From: Patescibacteria group bacterium
GTDB lineage: Bacteria > Patescibacteriota > Minisyncoccia > Phycocordibacterales > DATDWN01
Assembly: GCA_040389125.1 (NCBI GenBank)
Contig: JAZKAN010000006.1
Coordinates: 1 to 50,010 of the forward strand
Length of the DNA: 50,010 nucleotides
Reading direction: 5' to 3'
Shown here: positions 17,135 through 37,553 of the stretch, piece after piece
Layout: the number at the start of each line of letters is the position of its first letter
Numbering within the stretch: position 1 is the stretch's first letter
Translations under genes and position numbers: made by a program
Notes under the pieces: generated by a model
What the model saw: only the letters and a program-made list of their open reading frames with translations
Database searches by the model: none
Told to the model about the DNA's origin: nothing

Positions 17135-17209
17135 TTTTCCCGCCAGCACGGCAGAAAGACTGTCGCTCGGCGGGATTTCTGTTTACAAATTTAAATAATA
17201 GAATCACCA

Positions 17210-17378
17210 CTAAACAAATTTCACTCATACATTTTCAGAGCATCCGCAGACCTTGAGCATGGTTTTGTCAAAGTCCCGAGTATTCTCGGGTTCATTGACA
17301 AATCAAGGTCGAGGACCGAAAAAACCTTTCGCAGGAAAGGTTTTTGTCTCTGAAAATGTATGAGTGAAATTTGTTTAG
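17210..17378 (+). repeat. Family-2 three-way-junction palindromic element, copy D
   Basis: 31-bp perfect terminal IR enclosing CATCCGCA-[stem]-GAGGACCGAA-[stem, GCAG loop]-TGT. Confidence 0.9.
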
Positions 17379-17381
17379 GAG

Positions 17382-19646
17382 TTACTCAGCTTTCTTTTTC
17401 TTTGCGAACCCTCGCTTCTTTTTCTCCTGTGCAAAAATCTCGAGAGCACGAGGAAGTTCGATCGTATACACATCATCATCCTTGAGTGATCGGAAATCCT
17501 TTTGATGTACAACATACGGACCAAACATTCCAATATTCGCAGTTATCTTTTCTCCCGTATCCGGATGAACACCCAGCACACGAGGCAAAGTCAAATACTT
17601 GAGCGCATCCTGTAGCGTAATCGTCTCCGGATCCTTGCCCTTTGGCACACTCGCCATTTTTGGCTTTGGTAGTTTTACTGCTTTTGGCTTTTTGATTTTC
17701 TTTCCGTTTTCATCAAACTCGGGTACAGCTTTTGCAGATGACTTTTTCGGCATTTCACCGAGCTGTACATACGGACCATATCTGCCGATGAGCACAAAAA
17801 TAGGCAGTCCCGTTTCCGGATCAATTCCGACTGGTTCATCTTTTTTAATTTCCTTGCCTTCCATGGTTAGTGCTCCCTCGCAGTCTGGATATCGAGCGCA
17901 TGATAGAAATTTACCACCACGAGAAAGCTTAATAATCATTTTGCCACCACACACAGGGCATTTGAATTTTGGATCAGCATCACCAAGGTTTGTGACCTTG
18001 TCCATTTTCTCTTTGCTTTTGACCTCGGCAAGAAATGGCTTGTAAAACGTCTTGAGCATTTTTGCATATTCCTCTTTGCCTTCTGCGATAAGGTCGAGAC
18101 GGTCTTCCATGTCGGCAGTAAAACTGTCACTGATATATCCGCCGAAATTGGCTTCGAGAAAACTAGACACAACATCTCCGGTGTCAGTAGGCACAAGTGC
18201 CTTGTTTATTTTCTCGACATATCCACGGTCCTCGATTGTTTTAATAATTGAGGCGTATGTCGATGGACGACCAATGCCACGTTTTTCGAGTTCCTTTACG
18301 AGACCTGCCTCAGAATATCGTGTCGGTGGTTCGGTATGTTTTTCCTCGGTTAAAACTTTTTGTAAATCCAAATCTTCTCCCACAGTAACTGGTGGGAGTT
18401 CAACATCCTCGCCACGCGATGGGGGATCTCCGAGAAGCCAGCCGGGAGAAGTGATGCGAGAACCTGTAATAGAAAAGTCAGGAATTTCTTCACCAGGTTT
18501 TGCGTCTTTAATGTTCGCAGTAATTTTCGTACGCAAGGTCTGTGCATCTTTCATCTGTGAACTGACCGCACGTCGCCAGATGAGTGTGTAGAGTTTCTGT
18601 TGCTCATCATTCAGTCCCGCCTTCTCCACATCAAAATGTGTTGGACGTATTGCCTCGTGTGCCTCCTGTGCATTTTTGCTTTTTGCTGAATACGTTCTGA
18701 TCTGCACGTATTCCTTTCCAAATTTCTTCTCGATGACTTGTGTGATCTGACTGAGCGCCATTTGACTGAGGTTCGTTGAGTCAGTACGCATGTATGTAAT
18801 ATGTCCTGCCTCGTATAGTCGCTGTGCAATACCCATCGTACGAGATGGCGCAAACCCGAGTCGTGATGAGGCTGACTGTTGTAGAGTAGAAGTAATAAAC
18901 GGTGCACGTGGAGTTTTCTTTACATCGGATTCTTTTACATCTTTGACTATCCAGGATCCCTTCTCGGCAATAGTCACAATTCGATCCACACTTTTCTGGT
19001 CGAGTGGCTCTTCCTCGCAGATCACTGTAAATGGTACTTTTTTGCTACTCTCTACCTCTGCAGAAATAACCCAAAATGAGTGTGAAATAAATGCACGAAT
19101 TTCTCTTTCGCGTTCCATGACAATGCGGAGTGCGGGTGATTGCACACGACCCGCAGAGAGTCCGTAACGAACTTTTTTCCAGATCAGTCCCGAGAGGTCG
19201 TATCCCACCAGTCTGTCGAGCACACGACGTGCTTCCTGTGCTTGTTTCAGGTTGTCATCAATGTCTCGCGGATGTTGTATTGCCTCTGTCACGGCTTCTT
19301 TTGTGATTTCATGAAATACAACACGCTGTGGGTGTTTGAGTCCGATTGCGTCCGCAATGTGCCACGCGATTGCCTCGCCCTCGCGGTCGGGGTCAGTTGC
19401 AAGTAATACCACACTTGATTCCTTTGCGAGTGATTTTATTTCTGCTACCACTTTTTCCTTGCCCTTGGATATTTCATAGTGAGGCACGAAACCTGCTTCA
19501 ATATCAATTGCTGCTTTGTTTGATTTTGGCAAATCACGAACATGACCCACAGATGCGACCACGGTGTATTCACCATTCAAATATTTTGAAATTGTTTTTG
19601 CTTTTGCGGGGGACTCGACGATGAGTAGTTTCATCTTTTTATTCAT
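17382..19646 (-). CDS. topA: DNA topoisomerase I
   Basis: LIVESPAKAKTI, ATDPDREGEAI, SAGRVQS, ITYMRTDS, GIGRPSTYA; zinc ribbon and Topo_C repeats; probable start MNKKMK. Confidence 0.96.
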   Translation of the reverse strand: MNKKMKLLIVESPAKAKTISKYLNGEYTVVASVGHVRDLPKSNKAAIDIEAGFVPHYEISKGKEKVVAEIKSLAKESSVVLLATDPDREGEAIAWHIADAIGLKHPQRVVFHEITKEAVTEAIQHPRDIDDNLKQAQEARRVLDRLVGYDLSGLIWKKVRYGLSAGRVQSPALRIVMEREREIRAFISHSFWVISAEVESSKKVPFTVICEEEPLDQKSVDRIVTIAEKGSWIVKDVKESDVKKTPRAPFITSTLQQSASSRLGFAPSRTMGIAQRLYEAGHITYMRTDSTNLSQMALSQITQVIEKKFGKEYVQIRTYSAKSKNAQEAHEAIRPTHFDVEKAGLNDEQQKLYTLIWRRAVSSQMKDAQTLRTKITANIKDAKPGEEIPDFSITGSRITSPGWLLGDPPSRGEDVELPPVTVGEDLDLQKVLTEEKHTEPPTRYSEAGLVKELEKRGIGRPSTYASIIKTIEDRGYVEKINKALVPTDTGDVVSSFLEANFGGYISDSFTADMEDRLDLIAEGKEEYAKMLKTFYKPFLAEVKSKEKMDKVTNLGDADPKFKCPVCGGKMIIKLSRGGKFLSCARYPDCEGALTMEGKEIKKDEPVGIDPETGLPIFVLIGRYGPYVQLGEMPKKSSAKAVPEFDENGKKIKKPKAVKLPKPKMASVPKGKDPETITLQDALKYLTLPRVLGVHPDTGEKITANIGMFGPYVVHQKDFRSLKDDDVYTIELPRALEIFAQEKKKRGFAKKKKAE

Positions 19647-19680
19647 GCTGTTGATTATTACTGTAAAAAATATTTTTTGC

Positions 19681-19817
19681 AAATCAAAAAAACTCTTTCT
19701 CGTCATATGTTTTCTGTCGCCGGAATAATTTTCTGCTGAAAATTTTCCTCGCACTCGCGTCTTCACGCGCTCCGTGATGCGCCAGAAAACATATGACTTC
19801 GACGAGTTTTTTGATTT
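19681..19817 (-). repeat. Family-1 element, copy B
   Basis: Same 66-nt core on the minus strand; different 15-bp inner stem GTCATATGTTTTCTG/CAGAAAACATATGAC. Confidence 0.9.
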
Positions 19818-19889
19818 CCACAGATGACGTCGGTTGGGGGATTTGACAAAAAGGGTAAATAGGAGTTCAATTAAATGAGGAGATGACAT

Positions 19890-20078
19890 ATGGCTACGGC
19901 CACAAAAACCGCATTACAAAACGGCAACACCAAGTATTGCACAACTCAGTGCAATACCTTCGTTACCGCCGGCGATCCTGACAAGATCGAGTACAATGGA
20001 TCCCGCTTTCATCGGGGATGCCTTGTCAAGACAAATGAGGGAAAGGAGATACTGGCTCTGGTGTGTAAGCGTAAATAG
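19890..20078 (+). CDS. Small Cys/His-containing hypothetical protein
   Basis: GAGGAG SD; TTGACA-17-TTCAAT promoter 19843-19871; CTTQC...FHRGC; hairpin 20099-20125. Confidence 0.6.
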   Translation: MATATKTALQNGNTKYCTTQCNTFVTAGDPDKIEYNGSRFHRGCLVKTNEGKEILALVCKRK

Positions 20079-20161
20079 GAGCCAATTTTGATTTGAAGAA
20101 GGCGCCCCCGATGTGGTGGCGCCTTTAGTGTTTACAAAATATTTTCAAAACTTTGGAAATA

Positions 20162-21028
20162 TTACTTTAAGTGGATTTCTCCCATGACTTCCTCAATCAG
20201 TCCCTTTATTTCCATGGTGGCGAGTATCGTCTGCGTTACATACACAGGCTTGCCGAGTTCGCGAATTATCGCATCACGGGAAAGGGGTTCTCGGAGAATG
20301 TTGATTACTTCGTGTTCATCAGTCGAGCAGTCACTGTAGTCTCGTGATTCAAACAAATCGTCATGTGGTCGTAGTCCGAGCGCGCTCACGATATCACTTG
20401 ACTGTGTGATCGGTGTTGCACCAAGTCGGAGTAGCATGTGAGGACCTTCGGATGTTTTAGAAAAAATAGAGTGGGGAACAGTGAACACATCGCGATTGTA
20501 TTCAATTGCGTATTTAGAAGTGATGAGTGTGCCAGATTTTAATTCTGCCTCGATCACAAGTGTCGCGTGTGACATGCCCGCAATGATGCGATTGCGTTGT
20601 GGAAAGTTTGAAGGATATGACGGTTCCTTATCAGGAAACTCAGATAGGAGTGTCCCGCCACTTTCCACTATTTCTTCGGCAAGTCCTCTATGTTGTGCGG
20701 GGTAGAGGAATTTAGGATCGAGACCAGATCCAGGAATCGCGACCGTACGTAACCCGGCATTTAGTGCCGCTCGGTGAGCTATGGAGTCGATTCCGAGTGC
20801 CAGTCCCGATACAATCACGATCGGGTATCCACGCAGACCCTCGATCAATTTTTCACATACTGCCTTGCCGTACTCACTGTATTTGCGCGCGCCGACGACA
20901 GCCAGGTATTTTATTTCGTCACTGTCCCGATCTGGCAACTCACCCACAATTCGCATTTCTTTTGGCGGATCATTTATTTCAAGGAGTAGTTTGGGAAAGT
21001 CCTTTTTATGCAGAGTCTCTATCTTCAT
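20162..21028 (-). CDS. dprA: DNA-processing protein DprA/Smf
   Basis: AVVGARK, VSGLALGIDSIAH, FPQRNRIIAG, KSGTLIT; upstream of topA. Confidence 0.95.
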   Translation of the reverse strand: MKIETLHKKDFPKLLLEINDPPKEMRIVGELPDRDSDEIKYLAVVGARKYSEYGKAVCEKLIEGLRGYPIVIVSGLALGIDSIAHRAALNAGLRTVAIPGSGLDPKFLYPAQHRGLAEEIVESGGTLLSEFPDKEPSYPSNFPQRNRIIAGMSHATLVIEAELKSGTLITSKYAIEYNRDVFTVPHSIFSKTSEGPHMLLRLGATPITQSSDIVSALGLRPHDDLFESRDYSDCSTDEHEVINILREPLSRDAIIRELGKPVYVTQTILATMEIKGLIEEVMGEIHLK

Positions 21029-21130
21029 ATATATAGTATAGCAGAGGATTCTGAAACAATTACAATATATTTAGACTAGATAAATCCCGCAGTTTTCATA
21101 TTTCCAACTTTGGTATACTATATACATACT

Positions 21131-22411
21131 ATGTTAGATATTAAATTCATTCGGGAAAACAAAGACTTGGTGGCACTTGGTGCAAAGAAAAAGCACATCG
21201 AGTTTGATGTAGACGCACTCATTACTACCGATGACAAACGTCGCGAGCTTCTTGCAAGTATCGAGAAAAAGCGTGCAGAACAAAATGAGGTTAGTGAGAA
21301 AATTGTACGCACACAGGAGCAATCCGAAAAATCAGATATGATTTCAAAAATGCAGACACTAAAAGTAGAACTGCAAAAAGAAGAGGAAGAACTCAAAACC
21401 GTCATGCACGACTGGCAGATGCGCATGGTAACGGTCCCAAACATTCCCGATATGTCAGTGCCAGAGGGCAAGGATGATAGCGAAAATAAGGAAGTGAAAG
21501 TCTGGGGCGAGATTCCTAAATTTGATTTTACTCCACGGGATCACATTGAACTCATGACAAATCTCGGTATGCTTGATCTCGAACGTGGTACAAAAGTTGC
21601 GGGGTTTCGTGGATATTTTCTAACCGGAGACGGAGCGCGACTTCAGTTTGCCCTGTGGAATTTTGTGCAAGATTTTTTTAATAAAAAAGAAGGATTTAGA
21701 CCGATGATCGTGCCATCTCTCGTACGACGTGAGCCGTTTATGGGCACAGGCTATCTGCCACAGAGCGAGGAGGATTTGTATAAAACGCAGGACGGTGAAT
21801 ATCTCTCGGGTACAGCAGAGGTTGCAACCATGGCTTTCTATATGGACGAGGTTTTAGAGAAAAAAGATTTACCAATAAAAATGCTCGCATTTTCAAATGC
21901 GTTTCGACGCGAGGCGGGTAGTCATGGCAAAGATACAAAAGGAATTTTGCGTGTGCACGAGTTTTATAAATACGAGCAGGTGGTGCTGTGCGAGGCGTCC
22001 CATACGGAGTCTGTAAAATACCACGAGGAAATCCAGATGAATACTGAGGAACTAACACAGGCCCTCGAACTCCCATACCATGTCGTAGTAAACTGTGGCG
22101 GCGATTTGGGTCTCGGTCAAGTTAAAAAATACGACATCGAAGTATGGCTTCCATCCGAAGGTAAATACCGTGAGACAGGCTCTGCGTCATACTTTCATGA
22201 TTTCCAAACACGACGACTCAACATCCGCTATCGCGATGACGATGGTAAAATGAAATTTGTGCACTCGCTCAATAACACCGCACTCTCTGGTAGGCCGCTC
22301 ATTATGATTATCGAAAACTTCCAAAATGCCGACGGCTCGATTCGTATCCCAACCGCCTTGCAACCCTACATGGGAGGGCAAACCATCATCACCAAGCCCC
22401 AGTCAAACTAA
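21131..22411 (+). CDS. serS: Seryl-tRNA synthetase
   Basis: MLDIKFIREN, GTAEV, FRREAGSHG, RVHEFYKYEQ, VHSLNNTA. Confidence 0.97.
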   Translation: MLDIKFIRENKDLVALGAKKKHIEFDVDALITTDDKRRELLASIEKKRAEQNEVSEKIVRTQEQSEKSDMISKMQTLKVELQKEEEELKTVMHDWQMRMVTVPNIPDMSVPEGKDDSENKEVKVWGEIPKFDFTPRDHIELMTNLGMLDLERGTKVAGFRGYFLTGDGARLQFALWNFVQDFFNKKEGFRPMIVPSLVRREPFMGTGYLPQSEEDLYKTQDGEYLSGTAEVATMAFYMDEVLEKKDLPIKMLAFSNAFRREAGSHGKDTKGILRVHEFYKYEQVVLCEASHTESVKYHEEIQMNTEELTQALELPYHVVVNCGGDLGLGQVKKYDIEVWLPSEGKYRETGSASYFHDFQTRRLNIRYRDDDGKMKFVHSLNNTALSGRPLIMIIENFQNADGSIRIPTALQPYMGGQTIITKPQSN

Positions 22412-22412
22412 T

Positions 22413-22543
22413 AATTTTAATCTCGTTGAACAAAAGATTTTCTGGCGCATCACAGAGCGCGTGAAGACGCGAGTGCGAGGAAAATTTCTAGCAAGAAATT
22501 ATTCCGGCGACAGAAAATCTTTTGAGAATAAGAGATTAAAATT
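22413..22543 (+). repeat. Family-1 element, copy C
   Basis: Same core with compensatory AATTTCT-AGCA-AGAAATT hairpin; 14-bp inner and 12-bp outer stems. Confidence 0.9.
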
Positions 22544-22553
22544 TTAACATTCA

Positions 22554-23393
22554 ATGCCCAAATACTCATCACATCGCCAAGAAGAGTATATAAAGAAAAA
22601 ACACAAAAGACGACGAATCAAAGTCATTATTTTCTTCGTATTATTTTTTCTTTCCATTGGTTTTCTCATTTGGATTGCACATCGCCCGTCACTGCGTATT
22701 TCTGAAGTTGAACTCTCGGGTGGAGTACTCGTGACACAACAGGAAGTTTCTACAGAAGTCATACAATTTATTTCTGGTTCCTACATCTGGGTGTTTCCAA
22801 AAAATAACGCACTGCTCTACCCACAGAAAAAACTTGAGAAATATTTGAAGGATCATTTCAAACGTATCGATACAATTCATGTGGATACAAAAAATCTCCA
22901 CACCATGAGCGTGGAAATTTCTGAACGCAAATCTGAGGCACTGTGGTGTGGCGGTGTTCCAGGAGAAACAGAGGGTGAACAGGGACAGTGCTATTTTATG
23001 GATGCAAACAGCACAATTTTTGCAGAAGCACCGCAGTTTTCGGGTGATGCATATTTTAAATACTACGGATTGGTAACGACTGACTCACCCATTGGTTTAG
23101 AGTACATGGCGACGAGTACGGATTTTGCTGAACTTTCAAATTTCGTACAAAACGCTCGGAGATTACAAATAAAACCAGAATATGTTGTTGCAAAAGATAC
23201 AGGAGAATTTACTCTTGTTCTCGCTGGTGGTGGCAAAATTTATTTTGATAATAAAGAACCTCTGACTAAAGTGGCAGACAACCTCGAGGCTCTTCTGCGC
23301 ACCCCCGCACTAGTCCCGTCTACAAACGCTGATTTGCCGATCGATTATATTGATCTCAGATTTGGTAATAAATTGTTTTATAAACTGAAATAA
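22554..23393 (+). CDS. FtsQ/DivIB-like cell division protein
   Basis: Basic N-terminus, single TM helix, POTRA-like segment, VEISERK, C-terminal YIDLRFGNKLFYK. Confidence 0.8.
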   Translation: MPKYSSHRQEEYIKKKHKRRRIKVIIFFVLFFLSIGFLIWIAHRPSLRISEVELSGGVLVTQQEVSTEVIQFISGSYIWVFPKNNALLYPQKKLEKYLKDHFKRIDTIHVDTKNLHTMSVEISERKSEALWCGGVPGETEGEQGQCYFMDANSTIFAEAPQFSGDAYFKYYGLVTTDSPIGLEYMATSTDFAELSNFVQNARRLQIKPEYVVAKDTGEFTLVLAGGGKIYFDNKEPLTKVADNLEALLRTPALVPSTNADLPIDYIDLRFGNKLFYKLK

Positions 23394-23449
23394 AAACGAA
23401 ACGTACCCAGCCAAGTGGCGGGGTACGTAATGAGAGAACTTGCGAGAAA

Positions 23450-23851
23450 TTAGATCAGACCAAGGATGCTCTCAAGTTCTGTCACGTGCAGTTTTCTCTT
23501 TCTTGGTCGCATGTATGTGAGGAAAAAATTAACCACGTTTCCGCACGAAAGGTCACTTACCGACTCGATGAAACCAATAACCTGACCGTCTGTTCTTTCT
23601 ACCAGAACGGAATAGTAGTGGATATTGATTTTCACGGGATGTCCTCCGATGCTACCAATACTCACTACAAGTGGTCTGTTTAGACATCTCACCGACACAT
23701 GCGAGTTTACTTCCAGTCGGTCAATGAAATATCTGTTTGTGACGATATCTCCTTTAAAGAGATAGATGCAGTCTGTGAGAAGTGTTTTTTCACTATCACT
23801 CAGATTTCTAAGAACATGTGCTGCTTCAAAAGCAACGATATCAGCTGGCAT
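23450..23851 (-). CDS. Hypothetical protein (ORFan cassette)
   Basis: GGGGAG SD before MPADI; TTGACA upstream; hairpin 23401-23428; similarity to known families not recognised. Confidence 0.55.
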   Translation of the reverse strand: MPADIVAFEAAHVLRNLSDSEKTLLTDCIYLFKGDIVTNRYFIDRLEVNSHVSVRCLNRPLVVSIGSIGGHPVKINIHYYSVLVERTDGQVIGFIESVSDLSCGNVVNFFLTYMRPRKRKLHVTELESILGLI

Positions 23852-23920
23852 TATCTTTTCTCCCCATTTCAAATTACGCCTTTTTGATGATTTGTCAATG
23901 TGTGGTACAGTACTTTCATT

Positions 23921-24952
23921 ATGAATTTTTGGCAGGAATTAAAAGCACAGAAAAATGGTGAGCCGATACTTGTCCTCGCACCGATGGCTGATGTTACCGA
24001 CCCGGCATTTCGACGTATCATCGCCAAATATGGTAAACCAGATGTCATGTGGACCGAGTTTGTTTCTGCAGATGGACTATTTCTCGGTGGACGAGAGGCA
24101 CTGATCAAGGACCTTGCATACGATGAATCTGAACGACCTATCGTGGCACAGTTTTTTACATCGTCGCCAGAACGCATGATGCAGGCGGGGATGCTCGCGG
24201 TGGAACTTGGGTTCGATGGACTCGACATTAACATGGGTTGTCCAGACAAAAGCATCGAGAAACAAGGAGCAGGTGCGGGACTTATAAAAAATCCAACTCT
24301 TGCCAAGGAACTGATTCGATCGGCAAAAGAAGGAATTCGTGTCGCAAGTTTGAAAAAAAATATTCCAGAGGACAAACATATTCCTGTGTCCGTCAAAACT
24401 CGGATTGGATACAACAAAAATGAACTCGAGACATGGCTACCTGCTCTTTTAGATAGCGAGCCTGCAGTTGTCACTATTCACGCACGTACCCGCAAAGAAA
24501 TGTCACTCGTGCCTGCACGGTGGGAGCATGTGGCACGTGCGGTTGAGATTCGCGATAGCTGGCGGGGTGCAGATGGGCAGAAAAGTCAGACACTTATTTT
24601 CGGAAATGGTGATGTATTAAATATTGCGGACGCAGAAAAGAAAGCCACGGAGACACACTGCGATGGTGTCATGCTCGGTCGTGCGATATTTGGAAACCCA
24701 TGGTGTTTCAGTAGGGAGGTTAGTCGCGACGACATTTCGATTCCTGATCGACTGCGCGTCATGGTAGAACACACCAAACTTTTTGAGGAGCTTTTGCCAC
24801 ACAAAAGTTTCGCAATCATGAAAAAGCACTACAAGGCATATGTGAATGGATGGGATGGTGCCAAGGAACTACGAATGAAATTGATGGAGGCAAAAGACGC
24901 CAGTGAAATAGAACTCATTATTTCTGAGTATTTTAAAAATGGCTCTGTATAG
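23921..24952 (+). CDS. tRNA-dihydrouridine synthase
   Basis: LAPMADVTD, DINMGCP, SVKTRIG, IHARTRKE, GNGDV, DGVMLGRA. Confidence 0.95.
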   Translation: MNFWQELKAQKNGEPILVLAPMADVTDPAFRRIIAKYGKPDVMWTEFVSADGLFLGGREALIKDLAYDESERPIVAQFFTSSPERMMQAGMLAVELGFDGLDINMGCPDKSIEKQGAGAGLIKNPTLAKELIRSAKEGIRVASLKKNIPEDKHIPVSVKTRIGYNKNELETWLPALLDSEPAVVTIHARTRKEMSLVPARWEHVARAVEIRDSWRGADGQKSQTLIFGNGDVLNIADAEKKATETHCDGVMLGRAIFGNPWCFSREVSRDDISIPDRLRVMVEHTKLFEELLPHKSFAIMKKHYKAYVNGWDGAKELRMKLMEAKDASEIELIISEYFKNGSV

Positions 24953-25035
24953 GCACAAAATAAAATAAGTAAAAAGAAAATGAAGAAAATGTGTAAAAGT
25001 AATTGACTTATTTTGTGGTTGTGCTATACTTATAG

Positions 25036-25226
25036 GGAATCAATTTTTGTACTTTCATGCTCAAGAACTCTGAGCCGGGTAGAGTTCACAGTGCAAAGCG
25101 GCCGCGATTCGGCCAAGGAGATAACAACTAGATACCCGCGAACAACCAGCGTGCAATGCACGCCGGCAAGTAACGGGCTGGTGCCCAACACAACAGCAAG
25201 AGCCGCCCTAATATGGCGGCTTCTTT
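25036..25226 (+). ncRNA. Candidate stand-alone structured ncRNA upstream of dnaX
   Basis: TTGACT-16-(TG)TATACT promoter 25003-25030, GC-rich multi-stem body, terminator AGCCGCC/GGCGGCT 25201-25221; family not recognised. Confidence 0.5.
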
Positions 25227-25272
25227 ATTACCCAATTTTTCAAAAATTAAAATCCTCTGCTATACTACAGAC

Positions 25273-26319: not shown

Positions 26320-26344
26320 GATGTAAGGTGTTTGATTATTACAT

Positions 26345-26415
26345 TGGGAGATCGTCTAACGGTAGGACAGAGGCCTTTGAAGCCTTTAATTGGGGTTCGA
26401 TTCCCTGTCTCCCAG
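26345..26415 (+). tRNA. tRNA-Gln(TTG)
   Basis: TGGGAGA/TCTCCCA acceptor stem, GAGGC-CTTTGAA-GCCTT anticodon arm, GGTTCGATTCC. Confidence 0.95.
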
Positions 26416-26543
26416 CAATCTCGGTAAATCAACTGCATGTCCAAAGGTGCTGATGATGAAGCTATCTCCTCTGTGCGAAGAGTGTCCTTCTCATTCAATG
26501 GTATTTTATTGATTTAGAAAATAAAAAGATATATACTGTCAAT

Positions 26544-26891: not shown

Positions 26892-26970
26892 TTTGATATA
26901 TTGTTGAGTTATAATTATTTACTACTCGTTCGGATACTCTCCCTGATGCCCAGTAACTATTTTCAATCCC

Positions 26971-27336: not shown

Positions 27337-27394
27337 TTATGTGATAAGTCCAGTAAATTAGGCAATTATAATTTAAATTTGATATACTTTTTAC

Positions 27395-28294: not shown

Positions 28295-28333
28295 GAAATG
28301 AAAGTTTGGATTTGATAGTGTATGCTATATAGG

Positions 28334-29461: not shown

Positions 29462-29535
29462 TAAATGTGAGTACCGCACTAGACAAGAGTAAATACGTTG
29501 CCATTTTTTGGGTAAAATTGTGATATGCTATGGAT

Positions 29536-30450
29536 ATGAAAAAAAGCACTTTTGTTGTTTCGTTAGTATTCCTAATTTTAATCATTGGGGTTATCTGGCT
29601 TGCATACTATCCAAAAAAGGCAGTAGCTCCGACTCCACAAACTGGAGAAAGTATAAAAAATGCTACATATAGTATAGATGGTCGGTCTGTGACACTCGTA
29701 AATGGTATTTCGGAAATACCCGCTGCTCCTCAATCTGCAACCAAAATAACAACACGGTATTTTGGCAATGAAGTAACAGGTGATTTTAACGCAGATGGGA
29801 GAGTGGATACAGCATTTATTCTTACACAAAACACTGGTGGTAGTGGTACGTTTTATTATGTTGTAGTTGCTCTCAATACAAAAGATGGCTATATCGGCTC
29901 ACAGGCACTACTTCTCGGAGATCGAATCGCACCACAGACAACAGAGATCGGAAACAATACTATACTCGTTGTAAACTATGCCGACAGAAAGCCGGGTGAA
30001 AGTTTTGCAACACCGCCGTCTGTGGGAAAAAGCATCTGGCTCAAATTTGATTCTAACACAATGCAGTTTGGCGAAGTGGTACAAAATTTTGAAGGCGAAT
30101 CTGATCCAGCCAGGATGACACTTAACATGCAACCCTGGACCTGGATTCGTACGGTGTATAGTAACGATACTACTCTGGTTGCACGTGATCCAAGTAAATT
30201 TAAAATTACATTTGAAAAAAATAAAAAATTCTCGATCATGACCGATTGTAATACCGGAGGTGGCACGTATACAGTGAGTGGAAATAAAATTGTATTTACA
30301 GAAATGGTTTCAACACTAATGTATTGTGAGGGTTCGCAGGAGCAGGATTTTGTAAAAATGTTAAATCAAGTGCAGAGTTATCATTTTACGACAAAAGGGG
30401 AGCTCGTATTTGATCTCAAGGCAGATAGTGGCTCAATGATTTTCAGATAA
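29536..30450 (+). CDS. Membrane-anchored META-domain protein
   Basis: GGSGTFYY segment; C-terminal TDCN...STLMYC META signature. Confidence 0.8.
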   Translation: MKKSTFVVSLVFLILIIGVIWLAYYPKKAVAPTPQTGESIKNATYSIDGRSVTLVNGISEIPAAPQSATKITTRYFGNEVTGDFNADGRVDTAFILTQNTGGSGTFYYVVVALNTKDGYIGSQALLLGDRIAPQTTEIGNNTILVVNYADRKPGESFATPPSVGKSIWLKFDSNTMQFGEVVQNFEGESDPARMTLNMQPWTWIRTVYSNDTTLVARDPSKFKITFEKNKKFSIMTDCNTGGGTYTVSGNKIVFTEMVSTLMYCEGSQEQDFVKMLNQVQSYHFTTKGELVFDLKADSGSMIFR

Positions 30451-30526
30451 TTTGATACTCTTTGAAAGAGTCGGAATCTTTTTCTCACTGTTTCTTTTAT
30501 CCAAAATTCGTGTATACTGTATATAT

Positions 30527-30661
30527 ATGGCAAAAAGAGCAGCAACAAATACAAAAAACAATACAACACGTTCTCACAAAACAAAAAAACGTTTGGAGAT
30601 AAAACGCCTTCGTCTTCTTGCAAAGAAAAAGGGCAACAATTCTCGAAACAAAAAGAAGTAA
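30527..30661 (+). CDS. 44-aa very basic small protein
   Basis: MAKRAATNTKNNTTRSHKTKKRLEIKRLRLLAKKKGNNSRNKKK; TATACT 8 nt upstream; own terminator. Confidence 0.65.
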   Translation: MAKRAATNTKNNTTRSHKTKKRLEIKRLRLLAKKKGNNSRNKKK

Positions 30662-30680
30662 TCAAGTTATACACGCTAAT

Positions 30681-30714
30681 ACAATAAAACTGACAGAAAT
30701 GTCAGTTTTATTGT
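30681..30714 (+). terminator. Intrinsic terminator
   Basis: ACAATAAAACTGACA-GAAA-TGTCAGTTTTATTGT 15-bp stem. Confidence 0.8.
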
Positions 30715-30866
30715 TCAAATATTTTCACTCTCTCAGTTGTAATTTCATTTAGAATTTAAAAATATTCTGAAAGAAATGCCGATTTCTCGAAGAAATCCTG
30801 GACGAGATGTGATGTACGCTAGTTAATTACTGGATTGCATAATTAAATATTGGTATAATGTATTTT

Positions 30867-32192
30867 ATGCCACAGATAAAGCTATATCTCCAGCATATCT
30901 TTTCCTCATTTGTTTTTTTGTTTATTCTCATTGCGGGTATATTTTTCTCTAGAAATTATCTTCGGGGAGTGTTAAGTGACCCCCAAACATATTTTGGAAG
31001 TACGATGTCAGTTTTTGATATTTACTACTCAATAATTGCAATTAGTCTTATTGTTATTTCAGTTCTTCTCTCGTATATACTTTATTTATTACTTACAAAC
31101 AAAACACGATTTGAACTCGAGATTTGGAATGCAACGAAATCAATGGCGTTGTCCAAAGAGCAGTTTAGGAGAATCTACGATAGTGCACCGGTACCGTATA
31201 TCATAGTTGATAAGGATGCATTAATTACTGACTCCAATAAAGCTACATTGCGATTTTTCGGCGTTTTGCCGGAAAACATTATGGGTAAAAATATTTTTTC
31301 TTTTATTGCACCTGAAAGTGTGGAGGAAGGTCAAAAATTATACCAATATTACAAATCAAAAATCACATTCAATCGCAAAGAGGTTCAAATGATAACAAAA
31401 AGTGGCGCGATCAGAATTGTACAACTCTCAATTTTTGAAATGCGTGATCCAACTACTTCTCATCCATCTGGCCTTGTCATGATTTTTGATATTACAGATG
31501 AAAAAAATCTCGATAAACAAAAAACAGAGTTTGTATCCCTCGCATCTCATCAGCTCCGAACACCTCTTGCAACTACAAAATGGTACACAGAAATGCTCAT
31601 GTCAGGAGATTTAGGTGAACTTGATCCAAAACAAAAAGAGTACCTAGTCCGATTGCACATGGCAAATAAAGAAATGATTGAATTGGTCGATACGTTACTA
31701 AATGTTTCTCGAATCGAAATGGGGGCACTCGCTATAGACAAACAAATGGTAAATGTCGAGGAGATTGTTGAGAGTGTGCTCGCAGAGCTGTCAGTAGAAA
31801 TTCAAAATAGAGGATTGCATATTGAAAAACAATATAATGCAGACTTAAAAAATATAGATAGTGATCCAAAATTGTTGCGTATCGTTATCCAAAACTTGAT
31901 TTCAAATTCAGTCAAATATACGCCAAATGATGGATCGATAGTGATCGGATTCGAGAACACCGGTCTGGGGAGGCAAATTAGTATATCAGATAATGGATGT
32001 GGAATCCCGGCAGAACAGCAGGAGAGAATTTTCACAAAATTGTTTCGTGCAGATAATGTCCGTAAACTAGAGAGTAGTCAGGGAACTGGTTTAGGATTAT
32101 ACTTAGTTAAGTCCATAATTGAAGGGTTGGGGGGAACTATCACCTTTCAGTCAGAGGAAAATAAGGGTAGTGTGTTTACGATTACACTTTAA
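30867..32192 (+). CDS. PAS-domain sensor histidine kinase
   Basis: Two TM helices, PAS, H-box SHQLRTPL, NLISNSVKYT, DNGCG, GTGLGL. Confidence 0.93.
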   Translation: MPQIKLYLQHIFSSFVFLFILIAGIFFSRNYLRGVLSDPQTYFGSTMSVFDIYYSIIAISLIVISVLLSYILYLLLTNKTRFELEIWNATKSMALSKEQFRRIYDSAPVPYIIVDKDALITDSNKATLRFFGVLPENIMGKNIFSFIAPESVEEGQKLYQYYKSKITFNRKEVQMITKSGAIRIVQLSIFEMRDPTTSHPSGLVMIFDITDEKNLDKQKTEFVSLASHQLRTPLATTKWYTEMLMSGDLGELDPKQKEYLVRLHMANKEMIELVDTLLNVSRIEMGALAIDKQMVNVEEIVESVLAELSVEIQNRGLHIEKQYNADLKNIDSDPKLLRIVIQNLISNSVKYTPNDGSIVIGFENTGLGRQISISDNGCGIPAEQQERIFTKLFRADNVRKLESSQGTGLGLYLVKSIIEGLGGTITFQSEENKGSVFTITL

Positions 32193-32210
32193 TATTAAAT
32201 TTTAATATAT

Positions 32211-32603
32211 ATGATGGCTGAAATAACAGACAAAAAGAAAATACTCATTATTGATGATAACAAAGATCTAAACACTGTTTTGGCTGACAAACTGTCTGTT
32301 TCAGGTTTTGAAACTTCGAGTGCATTTGATGGTGAGGAGGGACTCGCTAAAGCTTTTGAAACTCACCCAGATGTAATACTGTTGGATATGCTTATGCCAA
32401 AAATGGATGGCCTAACTACTCTCAAAAAACTTCGAGATGATGCGTGGGGAAAGACATGTAAAGTCATGATTCTGACTCTCATAGAGGAAACTGATTATAT
32501 GGCGAAAACCATGGAATTCAATGTTATCGGATATATTGTAAAAACAAATCAATCACTAGATGAAATAGTTCGAGAGATTGAGATGACGATCAAGAATTCA
32601 TAA
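32211..32603 (+). CDS. Single-domain response regulator (REC)
   Basis: ILIIDD, LLDMLMPKMDG, YIVK. Confidence 0.92.
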   Translation: MMAEITDKKKILIIDDNKDLNTVLADKLSVSGFETSSAFDGEEGLAKAFETHPDVILLDMLMPKMDGLTTLKKLRDDAWGKTCKVMILTLIEETDYMAKTMEFNVIGYIVKTNQSLDEIVREIEMTIKNS

Positions 32604-32648
32604 CGCGGCATCTGTGTAATCGTTGGTCTAGATATAAAAAGCAGAACA

Positions 32649-33737
32649 ATGTCACTTCTAGAACCATTTCGCAAAATATATGGCCGTTTCGAGCGACCAA
32701 TTTCATCACTCTCTCTGATTGCAGGGTTTTTGTTTGATGCACTCACACTCAAACGAGTTGATACACTGTGGGAAAATAGCTGGGTACTCGCACATATAGT
32801 GATTGTTGGTGTGTTTATTATTCTCATTCATGCACACGAAGGCAAGGCAGGTGATGAGCAGAATCCAGATACACGACATTTTTGGTATGTGAATATTTTA
32901 CAGTTTTTCTTTGGGGGGATTTTATCAACATACATTGTCTTTTATTTCCGAAGTGCAGATTTGTTTGTGACATGGCCATTTATTTTACTTCTTGCCATTG
33001 CGTTTATTGCCAATGAATCTCTCAAAAGACACTATGTTCGTATGAGTTTTCAGATTAGTTTATTTTTCCTCTCCATCTATTCATTTGCAATTTTCCTAGT
33101 ACCAGTTTTGTTTCATAGGATTGGGGTGTGGATGTTTATTCTCTCTGGCATAATCAGCCTCATAACCATACTTCTTTTTCTTTTAATTTTATATCGGGTT
33201 ACAAAACAGAAATATCTAAAAAGTCGAAAAGTTGTTGCACTCACGATTCTAAGTATTTGTGTAGTAATAAACATCCTTTATTTTACAAATCTCATTCCTC
33301 CTATTCCACTGTCTCTCAAGGATGGTGGTATGTATCATGTAATAATTAAAAATCCTGATGGGGATTATAGTGTGTACAACGAAGACTTGGGATGGCGTAA
33401 ATATTTTCAATTGTTTCCTCGATACACAGAAGTAATAGGGGAACCAGTATATGCATATACTGCAATATTTTCTCCATCGCGACTGAACTTGACTATTGTT
33501 CATAAATGGCAGAAATTTGATGAGGTGAGTAGGCGATGGGCTACGGAAAGTAGTGTAGAGTTGCCTGTGATTGGTGGCCGAGATGGCGGATTTAGAACAT
33601 ATTCTGTACAATACGATTTACCCCCAGGTACCTGGAGGGTAAATGTGGAAACAGAACAGGGACAACTCATAGGTCGTATACGATTTACGATTGTACAGGG
33701 AGATACTAAACCAGAACTTATAGCCGAAATAAAATAA
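32649..33737 (+). CDS. Multi-TM membrane protein with C-terminal DUF2914 domain
   Basis: About 7 TM helices; GGRDGGFRTYS...PGTWRVNVET motif. Confidence 0.8.
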   Translation: MSLLEPFRKIYGRFERPISSLSLIAGFLFDALTLKRVDTLWENSWVLAHIVIVGVFIILIHAHEGKAGDEQNPDTRHFWYVNILQFFFGGILSTYIVFYFRSADLFVTWPFILLLAIAFIANESLKRHYVRMSFQISLFFLSIYSFAIFLVPVLFHRIGVWMFILSGIISLITILLFLLILYRVTKQKYLKSRKVVALTILSICVVINILYFTNLIPPIPLSLKDGGMYHVIIKNPDGDYSVYNEDLGWRKYFQLFPRYTEVIGEPVYAYTAIFSPSRLNLTIVHKWQKFDEVSRRWATESSVELPVIGGRDGGFRTYSVQYDLPPGTWRVNVETEQGQLIGRIRFTIVQGDTKPELIAEIK

Positions 33738-33738
33738 T

Positions 33739-35559
33739 ATGAAAAAACAGCAAACAGCAAAGGAATATCTGAATTTTCTTAATAAAAAATATTTTAAACT
33801 TCATAAATCATATGAGGATTTGTTTTGGATTTCCTACATGGGAGATAACACTGTAGATGCAAGGAAAGATAAGGCACTCGCAGATAGGGATGCATTCCGA
33901 GCCGATAGGAAACACTCTGAAAAAATCCAAGAATATTTGAAAACGGCAAATACTCAGCTAAAAGATAGACTACTTGTGTGGGTTCGATTTTTTGACCAGT
34001 ATCAAACTCCCATTGAAGCAATTCCGTTAAAACAAAAAATTGATGCACTTGAGTCTGATATTCATAAAAAAAGAGTAGGGAGAAAGGATGGATATGTGGA
34101 TCCGCTTACAAAACAATTTATCTTGGCCTCTCGGAATAAAATGGGCACAATGGTACGTACCAATCCGGACGAGAAAATTCGAAAAGCATGTTTCGATGCC
34201 CTCCAAGAAATCGCAACTACACTGGTTTCTGAGTATATTGAAGTAGTAAATCTTCGAAACGAATATGCACGAATACTTGGATATGAAGATTTCTATGCAT
34301 ATAAAGTTGAACGAGAAGATGGGATGTCTAAAAAGGAATTATTTACTATTTTTGATGCAATATACGAAAAAACTAAATATGCAAACAAAAATATTATTGA
34401 ATTAGAAAAGACAATGCTGGGTTTGCGAAAACCGTGGAACTTTGGGTATATGATGATTGGAGATTTTACCAAAGAAGAAGATCCATATTTTCAATTTGAT
34501 GATGCACTGTTGCGTTGGGGTAAATCATTTTCTGCACTCGGTATTGATTTTAAAGGTGGAAAACTTACACTCGACCTTTTGGATCGAAAAGGAAAATATG
34601 ATAATGGATTTTGTCACTGGCCAGATTTAGTCAAATACGAAAATGGAAAACGATATACTGGTAGCTCAAATTTTACCTGCAATGTGGTCATGGATCAGGT
34701 GGGTTCAGGAGAGCAAGGGTATAATACGTTATTTCACGAAGGTGGCCATGCCGCTCATCTTTTGAATTCTGAAGAAAAAGAAGTATGTGTAAATCATGAG
34801 TACGCACCTATGTCTACGGCATGGGCCGAAACACAAAGTATGTTTCTTGATACTGTATTTAGTAGTGTCGAATGGATATCGAGATATGCAAGAAATAAAG
34901 ATGGCGAAGTGTATCCATTTGAGCTCTATGAAAAAATACTGAGGAAAGTTTATCCACTTAAACCACTTGGATTAAATGGAATTATATCGGTCTGCGCTTT
35001 CGAAAGAGATATCTATGAGACAAAAGATTTGAATTATGAAAAGGTGCTTGAAATTGCAAAGAAAAATTTCAGAAAATATTCTGAGAGATCAGAGGATTCT
35101 TTGGGGTTACTCAATGTTCCACATATTTATTCATGGGAAAGTTCTGCCTCGTATCATGGATACGGTTTGGCAACCCTTGCACTTAGTCAATGGAGAGAAT
35201 ATTTCTTTAAAAAGTATGGATATATAGTTGATAATCCCAATATTGGTAAGGAAATGAAAAAAGTGTGGAAGTTTGCAGGGTCAAAAACATTTAGTGATTT
35301 TGTAAAATTGGCTACTGGTAAGAAATTATCACCCAATGCATATCTTGCGGGGGCCACAGCATCTCTGTCTATTATTCTGAAAAAATCAAAAGAGAGAATT
35401 GTACGGTTATCAAAAGTTAAGATTTCAAATAAAAAAATTGAGCTGAATGCGACTGTTCGTATGGTTCATGGTAAAAAAGAGATAGCAAATAATAAAAAAA
35501 GTTTTGAAGATATGACAGAAAAGTACGCGAAATGGCTGACTACTCAAAAAAATAAATAA
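33739..35559 (+). CDS. M3-family metallopeptidase
   Basis: TLFHEGGHAAH zincin motif, downstream AETQSM, RKGKYDNGF. Confidence 0.85.
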   Translation: MKKQQTAKEYLNFLNKKYFKLHKSYEDLFWISYMGDNTVDARKDKALADRDAFRADRKHSEKIQEYLKTANTQLKDRLLVWVRFFDQYQTPIEAIPLKQKIDALESDIHKKRVGRKDGYVDPLTKQFILASRNKMGTMVRTNPDEKIRKACFDALQEIATTLVSEYIEVVNLRNEYARILGYEDFYAYKVEREDGMSKKELFTIFDAIYEKTKYANKNIIELEKTMLGLRKPWNFGYMMIGDFTKEEDPYFQFDDALLRWGKSFSALGIDFKGGKLTLDLLDRKGKYDNGFCHWPDLVKYENGKRYTGSSNFTCNVVMDQVGSGEQGYNTLFHEGGHAAHLLNSEEKEVCVNHEYAPMSTAWAETQSMFLDTVFSSVEWISRYARNKDGEVYPFELYEKILRKVYPLKPLGLNGIISVCAFERDIYETKDLNYEKVLEIAKKNFRKYSERSEDSLGLLNVPHIYSWESSASYHGYGLATLALSQWREYFFKKYGYIVDNPNIGKEMKKVWKFAGSKTFSDFVKLATGKKLSPNAYLAGATASLSIILKKSKERIVRLSKVKISNKKIELNATVRMVHGKKEIANNKKSFEDMTEKYAKWLTTQKNK

Positions 35560-35579
35560 AATCAGGTATACTTATATAC

Positions 35580-36473
35580 ATGCAAACCACAAGAAAAGAA
35601 GATGTATTTTGGATTTTGCTTCTGATTTGCCTTGCAGGCTGGTATTTCCTTATATTTAAAACTGTCCCGTGCAAAAATCCTATTGAATATAAAATTGGTA
35701 CATTTGATAAGCGGTTTGGGATTAGTAAGGTGGATTTCATACGGTCACTAGAAACAGCTGAATCTGTGTGGGAGAAACCGATGAATAAAGATTTGTTTGA
35801 ATACAATCCTGACGCAACTCTCACTGTAAATCTCATCTACGATGATCGTCAGCAAACGACTCAGCAAAATGCACTGCTCAAGGCTGATATAAATAAAACA
35901 AATAACTTGGCACAGACGATCAAACAACAATACATCGAGCTTGAGCAGGAGTATGAATCACGCAAGGTGGATTACGAAAAATCCCTAGTTATATTTCAGA
36001 AAGATCAAACCGCATACACAACTCAGGTAGAATACTGGAACAACCAAGGTGGAGCTCCCAAAAAAGAATATGATGCACTCAATACACAAAAGGATACACT
36101 GACTCGTGAATATGCAGCACTCGAAAACAAGAGACAACAGATGAACTCACTAGTAAATCAAATAAATGCGTTCATTAACAAATACAACCTGCTGGTAAAA
36201 GACGCGAACTCAACTATTGAAACTATAAACGAGTCGGCGGGGGAGCAGTTTCAGGAAGGTGAATACGATCCAAATACAAATTCTATAAACATCTACGAGT
36301 TTAGTACAAACAAAAAACTAATTCGCGTCCTCGCACACGAACTCGGTCACGCAATCGGCCTCGACCACAACGCAAATCCCGACTCGATCATGTACTCACT
36401 CAACAGTGCGGATAACACAACCGCAAGTGTGGATGATCTCCAGTCTCTCAAAACTGTTTGTGGAGTGAGGTAA
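35580..36473 (+). CDS. Matrixin (M10-like) metalloprotease with coiled-coil insert
   Basis: HELGHAIGLDH and Met-turn SIMY; N-terminal TM helix. Confidence 0.88.
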   Translation: MQTTRKEDVFWILLLICLAGWYFLIFKTVPCKNPIEYKIGTFDKRFGISKVDFIRSLETAESVWEKPMNKDLFEYNPDATLTVNLIYDDRQQTTQQNALLKADINKTNNLAQTIKQQYIELEQEYESRKVDYEKSLVIFQKDQTAYTTQVEYWNNQGGAPKKEYDALNTQKDTLTREYAALENKRQQMNSLVNQINAFINKYNLLVKDANSTIETINESAGEQFQEGEYDPNTNSINIYEFSTNKKLIRVLAHELGHAIGLDHNANPDSIMYSLNSADNTTASVDDLQSLKTVCGVR

Positions 36474-36527
36474 TAAAGTAACAGCCCATGAACGCAAAGC
36501 GCCATGGGCTGGAAAAACTGGAACGAA

Positions 36528-37202
36528 TCAGACCGATACGGGGGTTTCTAGAAGTGCGAGAAGCTCCTCAATTTCGTGAATTTTCTCGTTGAGTGCATTT
36601 TGAGGAAAGGATTCCTGTCCCCACGCAGTATGGAACTTAATCTGCTTTGTGAAGCCAAGCTGACCTTGAAGCACTTCCAGCGGGGATTTATTCCACTCCT
36701 TTGCGAGGCCAAAAACTACTTGCTGTATCCATGCCACCGACAGTGATTGCGACATGTCAGCATCACGGATGATCTGATACGGGAGAATCAGTTCTTCTGA
36801 TGGAACTGCGTAGGGAAACTCTGTAGCTTTAATCATGTTGCGGATGTTGTGGAGTTCCCCCCGATCCTCAAAAAGAATATGTTTCTCGAGTCCACGAACA
36901 GCTCGTGCGATATTGATATCGTCATCGCCCATCATCCCGCTGTGGTCGAAGTCATGGAACATGGCGGCGATGAGTAAGTTCCGCATCTCCCATGACATAA
37001 GCAGATCACGATAGTACTCGCAGGCCTGGTAACACATGACCATCACATGGAACATGTGACGGAAATTGTGGTACGGATGTTGCAGATTCTGTGCACGGTT
37101 GAAGATGATTTGGAAGTACTCGACCAAGTCACCTCTGTAGAGACCACCATCATTTCGGATGATCCCAGGAAGAGAACCTCGAATTGGTACGACTGGTGTC
37201 AT
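36528..37202 (-). CDS. HD-domain phosphohydrolase, class I PDE-like
   Basis: YHNFRH, AAMFHDFDHSG, DAD; start at 37202 supported by AGGAG SD and TTGACA-17-TATTTT. Confidence 0.8.
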   Translation of the reverse strand: MTPVVPIRGSLPGIIRNDGGLYRGDLVEYFQIIFNRAQNLQHPYHNFRHMFHVMVMCYQACEYYRDLLMSWEMRNLLIAAMFHDFDHSGMMGDDDINIARAVRGLEKHILFEDRGELHNIRNMIKATEFPYAVPSEELILPYQIIRDADMSQSLSVAWIQQVVFGLAKEWNKSPLEVLQGQLGFTKQIKFHTAWGQESFPQNALNEKIHEIEELLALLETPVSV

Positions 37203-37280
37203 TGATATGCTCCTGTTTGAACATGTGTCTGCGAGTAAAATATCATGAGGATATGATGGTGTCAATGAGCAAGGACTGGA

Positions 37281-37440
37281 GCCTAACCCCTCCTACATTT
37301 CGGCAACATCCGCAAACGCCGAGCTCGGTGTTGTCAACGACTCGAGTAATCTCGAGCTCATTGACAACGAGGCGTTGAGGACCGAATGAGGCTTCCGCAG
37401 GAGAAGCCGAGTGTTTGCCGAAATGTAGGAGGGGTTAGGC
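37281..37440 (+). repeat. Family-2 element, copy E
   Basis: 26-bp perfect terminal IR; same junction sequences as 17210-17378 with re-written stems. Confidence 0.9.
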
Positions 37441-37471: not shown

Positions 37472-37491
37472 TGTGAATAGGATGTGGATAA
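37472..37491 (-). promoter_or_regulatory. Tandem DnaA boxes
   Basis: TGTGGATAA 37483-37491 (reverse complement TTATCCACA) and 1-mismatch TGTGAATAG 37472-37480. Confidence 0.5.
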
Positions 37492-37547: not shown

Positions 37548-37553
37548 TCAGCA

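Follow-up and report, generated by a model that had tools for sequence, protein, structure and literature searches.

Candidate Phyla Radiation (CPR) bacteria, or Patescibacteria, have tiny genomes and are uncultured, and their non-coding RNA is almost wholly uncharted. We analyzed a window of 50,010 nucleotides (nt) from one such genome (Patescibacteria group bacterium; Genome Taxonomy Database lineage Bacteria; Patescibacteriota; Minisyncoccia; Phycocordibacterales; DATDWN01; assembly GCA_040389125.1, contig JAZKAN010000006.1, positions 1 to 50,010 of the forward strand), which contains two copies, D and E, of a structured element lying 20 kb apart. D is situated between convergent genes, behind the terminator of a small open reading frame (ORF, 16802-17134) and 3 nt from the stop codon of topA. 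E lies 16 nt from the listed TTG start (37265) of an opposite-strand, phosphodiesterase-like ORF and 328 nt before rpoB. An earlier note on this DNA had described the pair as a two-copy family, each copy of which adjoins an ORFan cassette; this association holds for D, which follows ORF 16802-17134, and fails for E, whose neighbors are the phosphodiesterase-like gene and rpoB. The two copies consist of the following parts, P1 being the stem that closes the element.

17210-17378, + strand: copy D, whole element, closing stem plus three-way-junction core (covariance-model match 17227-17361, 145.4 bits)
17210-17240, + strand: D, perfect 31-nt arm forming the 5' side of closing stem P1
17241-17248, + strand: D, junction J1/2, CATCCGCA
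17249-17310, + strand: D, arm A (P2, bulge, P3 and P4), including P2, GACCTT/AAGGTC
17255-17263, + strand: D, conserved bulge GAGCATGGT, 9 nt (counterpart in E, GAGCTCGGT)
17265-17271 with 17295-17301, + strand: D, P3, TTGTCAA/TTGACAA
17275-17280 with 17285-17290, + strand: D, P4, CCCGAG/CTCGGG
17311-17320, + strand: D, junction GAGGACCGAA, in which CGAGGAC is near-invariant
17321-17347, + strand: D, hairpin P5 with loop CGCAGG, then GT
17348-17378, + strand: D, 3' arm of P1, perfect 31-nt arm, ending 3 nt away from the stop codon of topA (17382-17384, minus strand)
37281-37440, + strand: copy E, whole element (covariance-model match 37293-37428, 131.9 bits)
37281-37306 and 37415-37440, + strand: E, arms of P1, 26 nt each, 100% complementary
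37307-37414, + strand: E, core

Both copies present the same strings in the same order (CATCCGCA-P2-...-TTGTCAA-P4-TCATTGACAA-P2'-GAGGACCGAA-hairpin with CGCAGG-TGT), and each is predicted to fold into one long stem closed over a three-way junction. Compared with shuffled sequences, the folding of D scored z = -13.6 and that of E z = -10.6, with 0 of 200 shuffles as good in either case. The shared junctions and compensated helices that the earlier note had reported were confirmed at these coordinates: between D and E, P2 is changed at 4 of 6 pairs and P4 at 1 of 6, and every change is compensated. The closing stems have in common only TACATTT, placed six bases ahead of CATCCGCA in the arms of both copies, and scattered bases (79% column identity overall). 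Previously taken for a special register mark, TACATTT proved to be part of a semi-conserved proximal stem with the consensus AAAYCTTTTCAGAG, represented in D by the inner ~13 nt of the 5' arm (TACATTTTCAGAG); the outer 18 nt of that arm are unique in the genome. A coding reading of the core was discarded: an ATG within GAGCATGG opens a 35-codon frame in D, and at this place E has CTCGG and other copies CTTGG or CAAGG.

A class-wide family with a covarying junction fold

A strict junction pattern, applied to 401 genomes of the order, matched D and E alone in the window's genome (G000; 526 kb in 8 contigs, 71% complete) and three more copies in two genomes of the same family. A covariance model built from these five copies identified 7 full copies in the window's genome. 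Within the taxonomic family, matches were present in 56 of 63 genomes, amounting to ~427 in total (150 listed and 277 unlisted) and up to 22 per genome. In an order sample, 15 of 151 genomes had matches (13 of the 149 outside the family), as did 26 of the 151 genomes of a class sample (25 of 150 besides G000), in which copy number reached 21 per genome. In the genome collection, 71 stretches carry the core pattern, and their records are Parcubacteria, Paceibacterota, 'Minisyncoccia' or Candidatus Zambryskibacteria metagenome-assembled genomes (MAGs); some were automatically labeled Saccharibacteria, and a bin named Nitrospira accounts for two contigs. The strict core pattern had 0 matches in viral contigs.

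At the gathering threshold, Rfam 15 recovered only 7 tRNAs from the window and no family for the element; the tRNA genes are scattered on both strands, within 1-14000 and at 26345-26415. Allowing E-values up to 10 brought up long-hairpin look-alikes only, for example MIR821 with 38 bits against a gathering score of 249. The 6S RNA models likewise gave no Rfam match, and the element occurs in 7 to 22 copies per genome compared with the one or two expected for 6S RNA. Full-text literature searching, judged from listings and abstracts, found no description of such an element. We conclude that D and E, far from being a two-copy family, are two of seven copies of an undescribed, class-wide, multi-copy structured repeat family found in Parcubacteria/Paceibacteria-type MAGs, with hundreds of members in the class. 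Homologues at family, order and class level keep the junction sequences, in agreement with the structured family that the earlier note had proposed. Of the two alternative identities that it had named, a known non-coding RNA finds no Rfam match, and the ends of an insertion sequence (IS) are at odds with ends that are not common to other copies and with the distal stems of the seven copies, which are unique in the genome.

The architecture of the family is a long closing hairpin, semi-conserved over its inner ~13 bp and copy-specific farther out, capped by a three-way junction. Across the class, the helices are all rewritten and the unpaired strings stay near fixed (CCGCAG, GC(A/U)UGG, CGAGGAC, loop CGCNGG and a closing GU); some 35 unpaired or junction bases are near-invariant (CCGCAG, GCAUGG, CGAGGAC and loop CGCNGG). 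The CC of CCGCAG, the near-invariant part of J1/2, pairs with the GG of GAGGAC, and CGCAG is present twice per element, in J1/2 and in the P5 loop. The base of P5 carries tandem G.A pairs in most copies other than D. Among 83 copies, 94.3% of cells hold standard pairs, compared with 72.9% after shuffling (0 of 500 shuffles reach the observed value) and 34-50% with the partners slid, and 36 of 46 pairs show both-sided change. For 30 copies spanning the class, the corresponding values are 93.2% and 60.5% after shuffling, with both-sided change in 44 of 46 pairs; since the alignments behind the counts had been fitted to the model, and since the copies share descent, the counts in both sets overstate the number of independent events. 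Ranking by mutual information put the model's pairs on top and added a single pair, columns 142-177, which extends the P5 hairpin through the tandem G.A pairs; a pseudoknot search by mutual information produced only this same pair. An eye-picked GGU/ACC contact was rejected, as GGACC varies to GGACA and GGACU without a matching change. The three-way-junction fold is conserved by covariation.

Hammerheads and twisters often sit in repeats. A multi-copy, dispersed element whose invariant-rich three-way junction persists class-wide while every helix covaries could likewise carry a new self-cleaving or otherwise catalytic RNA. We consider this improbable, as no Rfam ribozyme model matches, even at E-values up to 10, and the junction strings, inspected by eye, do not suit the hammerhead core (CUGAUGA / GAAA).

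The earlier note had also read P3 as a pair of outward-facing -35 hexamers, which would bind sigma-70 RNA polymerase. TTGACA is indeed present on both P3 strands in D and E, and the inner 5 bp, GUCAA/UUGAC, are near invariant in the family (77-83 of 83 copies). The rest of the proposal did not survive. A promoter scan shows no site that starts at the P3 hexamers, and no -10 element lies 16-18 nt away in either direction in D or E. Moreover, 9 of 9 P3 pairs covary and 99.6% of cells pair in the 30 class-wide copies, where, for example, UUUUUUGG/CCAAAAAA replaces UUGUCAA/UUGACAA, and a copy in G132 does without the motif, having UUUGCCU/AGGCAAA instead. We give this promoter reading next to no credence.

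Wobble pairs reveal which strand folds. On the model strand, G.U outnumbers A.C by 216 to 48 over all pairs, by 122 to 24 when an ambiguously aligned junction helix is left out, and by 26 to 10 in the distal stems outside the model. Flanking GC skew on this strand is negative in 67 of 96 copies, from which the usual strand-biased C-to-T change predicts a bias opposite to the observed G.U excess. The folding strand, under selection to pair, is the window's + strand.

Placement, site turnover and competing explanations

To map the surroundings of 90 copies, we called ORFs of at least 100 aa by a simple procedure. Among 84 copies, 60 have their downstream gene (relative to the model strand) on the opposite strand, and 51 of these 60 genes end at most 35 nt from the model's 3' end; copies mostly lie tail-to-tail with a gene, against its stop codon. 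By neighbor orientation, 38 of the 90 are antisense to both neighbors, 13 sense to both, 13 between convergent genes and 8 between divergent genes. The neighbors are housekeeping genes, including pheT, lysS, thrS, greA, trmD, rpsI and rplM. Orientation follows the genes and not the replication arm, since it flips within 2 kb (C2:43036-43172, +, and C2:45055-45191, -, in G000). These two copies face each other 1.9 kb apart, each abutting the stop codon of one of two divergent genes. As with intrinsic terminators, the hairpin stands directly after a stop codon, and in relatives this position after topA is held by ordinary terminator hairpins. In canonical copies, the terminal GAGATTTT has T's that pair with an A-run on the 5' side.

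Occupancy of a given orthologous site differs between genomes, some carrying a copy and others not. Of 31 genomes, 3 (G000, G424 and G426) have one after topA, and the rest have elements resembling a type termed Family 1 (described below), plain terminators or nothing; before rpoB, 2 of 30 genomes have one, with side and orientation alike in both. No direct repeats are evident in the listed flanks, where a recurrent GA...GA belongs to the element's own internal loop. Terminal inverted repeats of the kind shared by miniature inverted-repeat transposable elements are not found among the copies, in which only the inner ~13 bp are semi-conserved. Insertion into a repeated extragenic palindrome as target was rejected because the distal stems are unique. 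Since perfect AT-rich palindromes of 17-18 bp do sit after genes, insertion into the loop of a unique terminator palindrome already in place would be an attractive alternative; no empty orthologous hairpin with the same stem was found.

Where orthologous sites are filled, the stems change yet stay paired. One pair reads T-A, C-G and G-C in L057, L071 and L065, respectively, and G.U intermediates are seen at this site. Eight orthologous comparisons at 6 sites comprised 10 pair-keeping double changes, 30 wobble-kept single changes and 490 unchanged pairs; the same comparisons contained 34 broken pairs (15 A.C and 19 other), a count inflated by taking the structure from one partner. Perfect runs of at least 25 bp occur in 12 of 96 copies. 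The closing stem would stay paired through compensatory change or through in-place correction of one arm by the other, sometimes to perfection, as in D and E.

The main rival to an RNA-level element is a mobile hairpin at the DNA level, akin to REPINs, BIMEs or IS200 derivatives and moved as single-stranded DNA by a Y1 (HUH) tyrosine transposase that recognizes the junction. Y1_Tnp domains are common: of 5 genomes checked, 4 contain them, with as many as 6 in one genome, and the order sample has them in 88 of its 151 genomes. The Y1 genes resemble those of repetitive extragenic palindrome (REP)-associated tyrosine transposases (RAYTs): they encode 211-237 aa with an HxH motif and have their own flanking palindromes. 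A strand-specific, G.T-tolerant fold suits RNA and single-stranded DNA alike, the search for a conserved promoter was negative, and copy number and site occupancy vary. Y1_Tnp and the element are, however, not associated (9 of 15 element-positive genomes in the order sample against 88 of 151 overall); G043, which is 99% complete and carries 5 copies, lacks Y1_Tnp, as does G000 (71% complete). The flanks of 12 inspected Y1 loci are simple 20-30-nt hairpins of their own, unrelated to the element. Orientation that tracks the neighboring gene is a further point against the DNA hairpin, as are outer stems unique to each copy, whereas a copied hairpin would bring its stem along, and ~35 invariant unpaired bases together with tandem G.A pairs would be more typical of folded RNA. 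We rate movement as a DNA hairpin as possible and unlikely. The Y1 genes at L144-L155 (G383, G233, G409 and G439), which have an LMPNHFHL motif and palindromes on both sides, look like a classical REP/RAYT set-up. TnpB zinc-ribbon domains were found in 0 of 5 genomes.

A second DNA-level reading, in which the element is an integron attC-like recombination site marking gene cassettes, draws on E's outermost GCCTAAC ... GTTAGGC, which fits the R''/R' consensus (RYYYAAC / GTTRRRY), on D following an ORFan in the same orientation, and on strand-specific folding. The ends of D and ~90 other flanks do not fit core sites, and the conserved part lies inside the element instead of at its ends. Conserved extrahelical bases are missing from the stems, which are perfect or regular, and the copies are dispersed beside housekeeping genes instead of standing in arrays. 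An attC-like site is very improbable.

Promoter-like signals bear on a reading in which the copies are independent genes. Two sets were found by consensus matching.

17195-17224, - strand: promoter-like site leading out of D's 5' arm, GTGAAA-18-TATTAT (9 of 12; consensus match only)
37217-37265, both strands: divergent promoter-like pair left of E (consensus matches only); the + site, TTGAAC-18-TATCAT (9 of 12), faces E, and the minus site, TTGACA-17-TATTTT (10 of 12, with TG), faces the phosphodiesterase-like gene

The site at 17195-17224 overlaps a TTAGTGG motif that ends about a fifth of copies. On the 5' side, 21 of 99 copies end with CCACTAA, and the opposite strand there reads TCRACG-16 nt-TGGTAnnnT; this arrangement stands alone before a relA homologue in two genomes without the element. 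Judging from these motifs, TCRACG-16-TAnnnT, with its -35 supplied by the internal-loop strand, may act in roughly one copy in five as a promoter that points outward to the next gene.

If each copy had such a local, often divergent promoter and ended at its own hairpin, the family would consist of independent genes for trans-acting small RNAs (sRNAs), for example protein-sequestering ones. The G.U excess is strongest in copies antisense to both neighbors (63 vs 12 in 37 copies), the + site facing E stands back to back with the neighboring gene's promoter, canonical copies end in GAGATTTT, and the CGCAG of J1/2 and of the P5 loop could be a repeated protein site. Set against this are the lack of any promoter conserved in position or sequence, a copy number as high as 22 with differing stems, which is unusual among trans-acting sRNAs, and D itself, which lies directly behind the terminator of ORF 16802-17134 and has no good + strand promoter. 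We regard the sRNA reading as rather unlikely.

The reading we prefer, at about an even chance, is that of a mobile structured element that operates at the RNA level at gene ends and combines a hairpin stop or insulator with a junction that is a binding or catalytic module. The element would act as RNA, its long hairpin serving as a (bidirectional) transcription stop or insulator at gene ends, and its conserved junction would be a docking or catalytic module for a factor that also underlies its spread. A bolder version, which we find doubtful, has the junction core active as RNA, whether as a novel ribozyme or as a novel docking RNA that serves a lineage-specific enzyme, and driving the element's own spread: a bacterial, SINE-like (short interspersed nuclear element-like) mobile element at the RNA level, homing to gene-end hairpins in ultra-small CPR genomes and doubling as transcription punctuation. 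Reverse transcriptase domains (RVT_1) were found in 3 of 5 genomes, and no listed RVT_1 place coincides with a listed element place; G383 has no RVT_1 and carries 17 copies at 99% completeness. A link with reverse transcriptase is not supported.

Several results weigh against an RNA-level element, beginning with the overstated covariation counts. Most frequently a copy is antisense to both neighbors, so that an RNA made from the folding strand would need antisense or divergent transcription. Upstream, the sequences of 46 canonical copies are heterogeneous and contain no conserved promoter, and TAnnnT shows no positional peak on either side or strand of 96 copies. The promoter and terminator scan detected no terminator-like U-tract after D or E. 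For the part of the window from 14001 to 24000, no RNA runs are listed. Fold energies are near equal on the two strands, at -92.9 and -92.0 in D and at -93.8 and -97.4 in E, so D and E leave the strand to be decided by the family counts, and even these are no proof of RNA, as G.T is also tolerated in single-stranded DNA hairpins. No recurrent neighbor gene or mobilizing enzyme was found beside the copies. Finally, the empty-site comparison suggested in the earlier note established sporadic occupancy after topA and before rpoB and yielded no clean empty/filled allele pair with defined ends or target duplication.

A shared outer scaffold and other features of the window

Most copies extend outward beyond the modeled region, reading AAAATCTC, an internal loop GTYGA, a middle stem and the core, and returning through the middle stem, GAGAAA and GAGATTTT. 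D has perfect pairing (ACTCA/TGAGT) in place of the internal loop, and in E the outer stem is lost. A k-turn reading of the internal loop GUYGA/GAGAAA of canonical copies was set aside, as the non-bulged strand has four extra bases and the motif would be non-standard. The same scaffold encloses a smaller junction core in Family 1, three elements of which lie in the window.

15032-15183, + strand: Family 1 element, outer scaffold AAATCTC GTTGA ... GAGAAA GAGATTT with the smaller junction core
19687-19812, - strand (model strand): Family 1 element, from the inverted-repeat scan
22400-22556, + strand: Family 1 element, from the inverted-repeat scan

Family 1 has a long variable stem around a core of ~58-66 nt (GCGCATCACGGAG..GAGGAAAA..CCGGCGAC), in which the junction layout is the same as in the family of D and E (Family 2). 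The covariance model weakly matches Family 1-like elements, with 40.9 bits at C1:113911-113998 of G000 and 36 bits at L131. Sharing of the outer scaffold around different cores means that one scaffold carries alternative cores, and by its sequence Family 1 looks like a minimal sister family. The topA ORF as called (17382-19889, -) runs through the Family 1 element at 19687-19812; its Toprim domain begins only at residue 88, so the true topA start is probably near 19650, placing this element upstream of topA.

A third repeat type has the order A-B...A'-B' (AGAAAAGG CCTCAAC ... CTTTTCT GTTGAGG). Its copy in the window, at 17137-17185, reads CAGAAAT CCCGCC ... TTTCTG ... GGCGGG, and in relatives it is found downstream of topA (L019, L110, L119, L124, L126 and L130). 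It often adjoins the TTAGTGG end of hairpin elements, has no Rfam match, and could be a pseudoknot or a terminator with swapped tracts.

Between E and rpoB, the region 37483-37756 is conserved in 30 genomes of the family (L156-L185). It contains a DnaA-box-like TGTGGATAA at 37483-37491 and a near-consensus promoter, TTGACA-18-TATACT, at 37518-37547, followed by a conserved leader of ~200 nt (AACTTCA..GATTGAGT..ACTATTTTGCGAAACAATCGCTAA), and relatives have a hairpin and T-run just before rpoB. This region may be an undescribed rpoB leader or a small RNA.

On the other side of topA's stop codon, relatives have topA directly followed by a relA/spoT homologue; here ORF 16802-17134, its terminator and D are wedged between the two genes, with the ORF on the opposite strand. 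It encodes 110 aa with an N-terminal hydrophobic stretch, is preceded by a 12-of-12 consensus promoter at 16749-16777, and had no Pfam match and no relative among the loci compared. A -10-like hexamer ((C/G)ACTACAAT or TGGTAATAT, 6 nt, ATG) stands 6 nt before the start of the relA/spoT homologue in many genomes, as seen in the topA-relA spacers of L113, L116, L120, L125, L133, L134, L136 and L138, which suggests leaderless mRNAs in the genome family.

Significance and relation to known systems

With hundreds of copies across the class and very clean covariation, the element makes up as much as about 0.5% of a 0.7-Mb genome. If it is a mobile cis-acting stop or insulator, it would explain transcription punctuation in streamlined genomes; if its core binds a ligand or protein or is catalytic, it would represent a new RNA class. 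It also offers a ready case for how long hairpins keep or regain perfect pairing during sequence turnover.

Like the element, the TIGR-Tas stem-loop guide arrays occur in CPR hosts and have hairpins with variable stems and small conserved motifs; they are found in CPR bacteria and phages as short tandem units beside a Tas gene with a Nop domain (PMC12045711). The element is dispersed and far larger, and the Nop domain (PF01798) was found in 0 of 5 genomes.

A conserved core combined with a free closing stem is an unusual feature among structured intergenic repeats. REP, BIME and REPIN sequences are many-copy extragenic palindromes that lie just after genes, form long hairpins, may stop or stabilize transcripts and are associated with RAYT transposases. 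The element resembles them in its many gene-end hairpins and in its strand-specific, G.T-tolerant folding, and RAYT-like genes exist in these genomes. In REPs, however, the stem is conserved and the loop is free, whereas in the present element conservation falls on the apical three-way junction and the outer stem varies freely; in addition, the element shows no association with Y1_Tnp, and the palindromes of the RAYT-like genes differ from it.

The Correia elements (CREE) of Neisseria and the pneumococcal BOX and RUP elements are, like this element, short, dispersed non-coding repeats near gene ends; they form hairpins in transcripts and can have outward promoters and terminator activity. BOX elements are modular, as is the present system, in which the core inside a common outer scaffold is of Family 1 or of Family 2. 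Those repeats have conserved terminal inverted repeats (and, in Correia elements, a TA target duplication), whereas the present element has unique distal arms and showed no duplication in the listed flanks; none of them is known to have a junction core that covariation conserves throughout a class. In its covarying fold, invariant junction bases and restriction to a lineage, the element resembles the Rfam-type structured RNA motifs without assigned function that comparative genomics has brought to light. It stands apart from these in lacking an Rfam 15 match, in reaching up to 22 copies in genomes of 0.5-0.9 Mb, and in closing its conserved junction with a stem of 20-35 bp.

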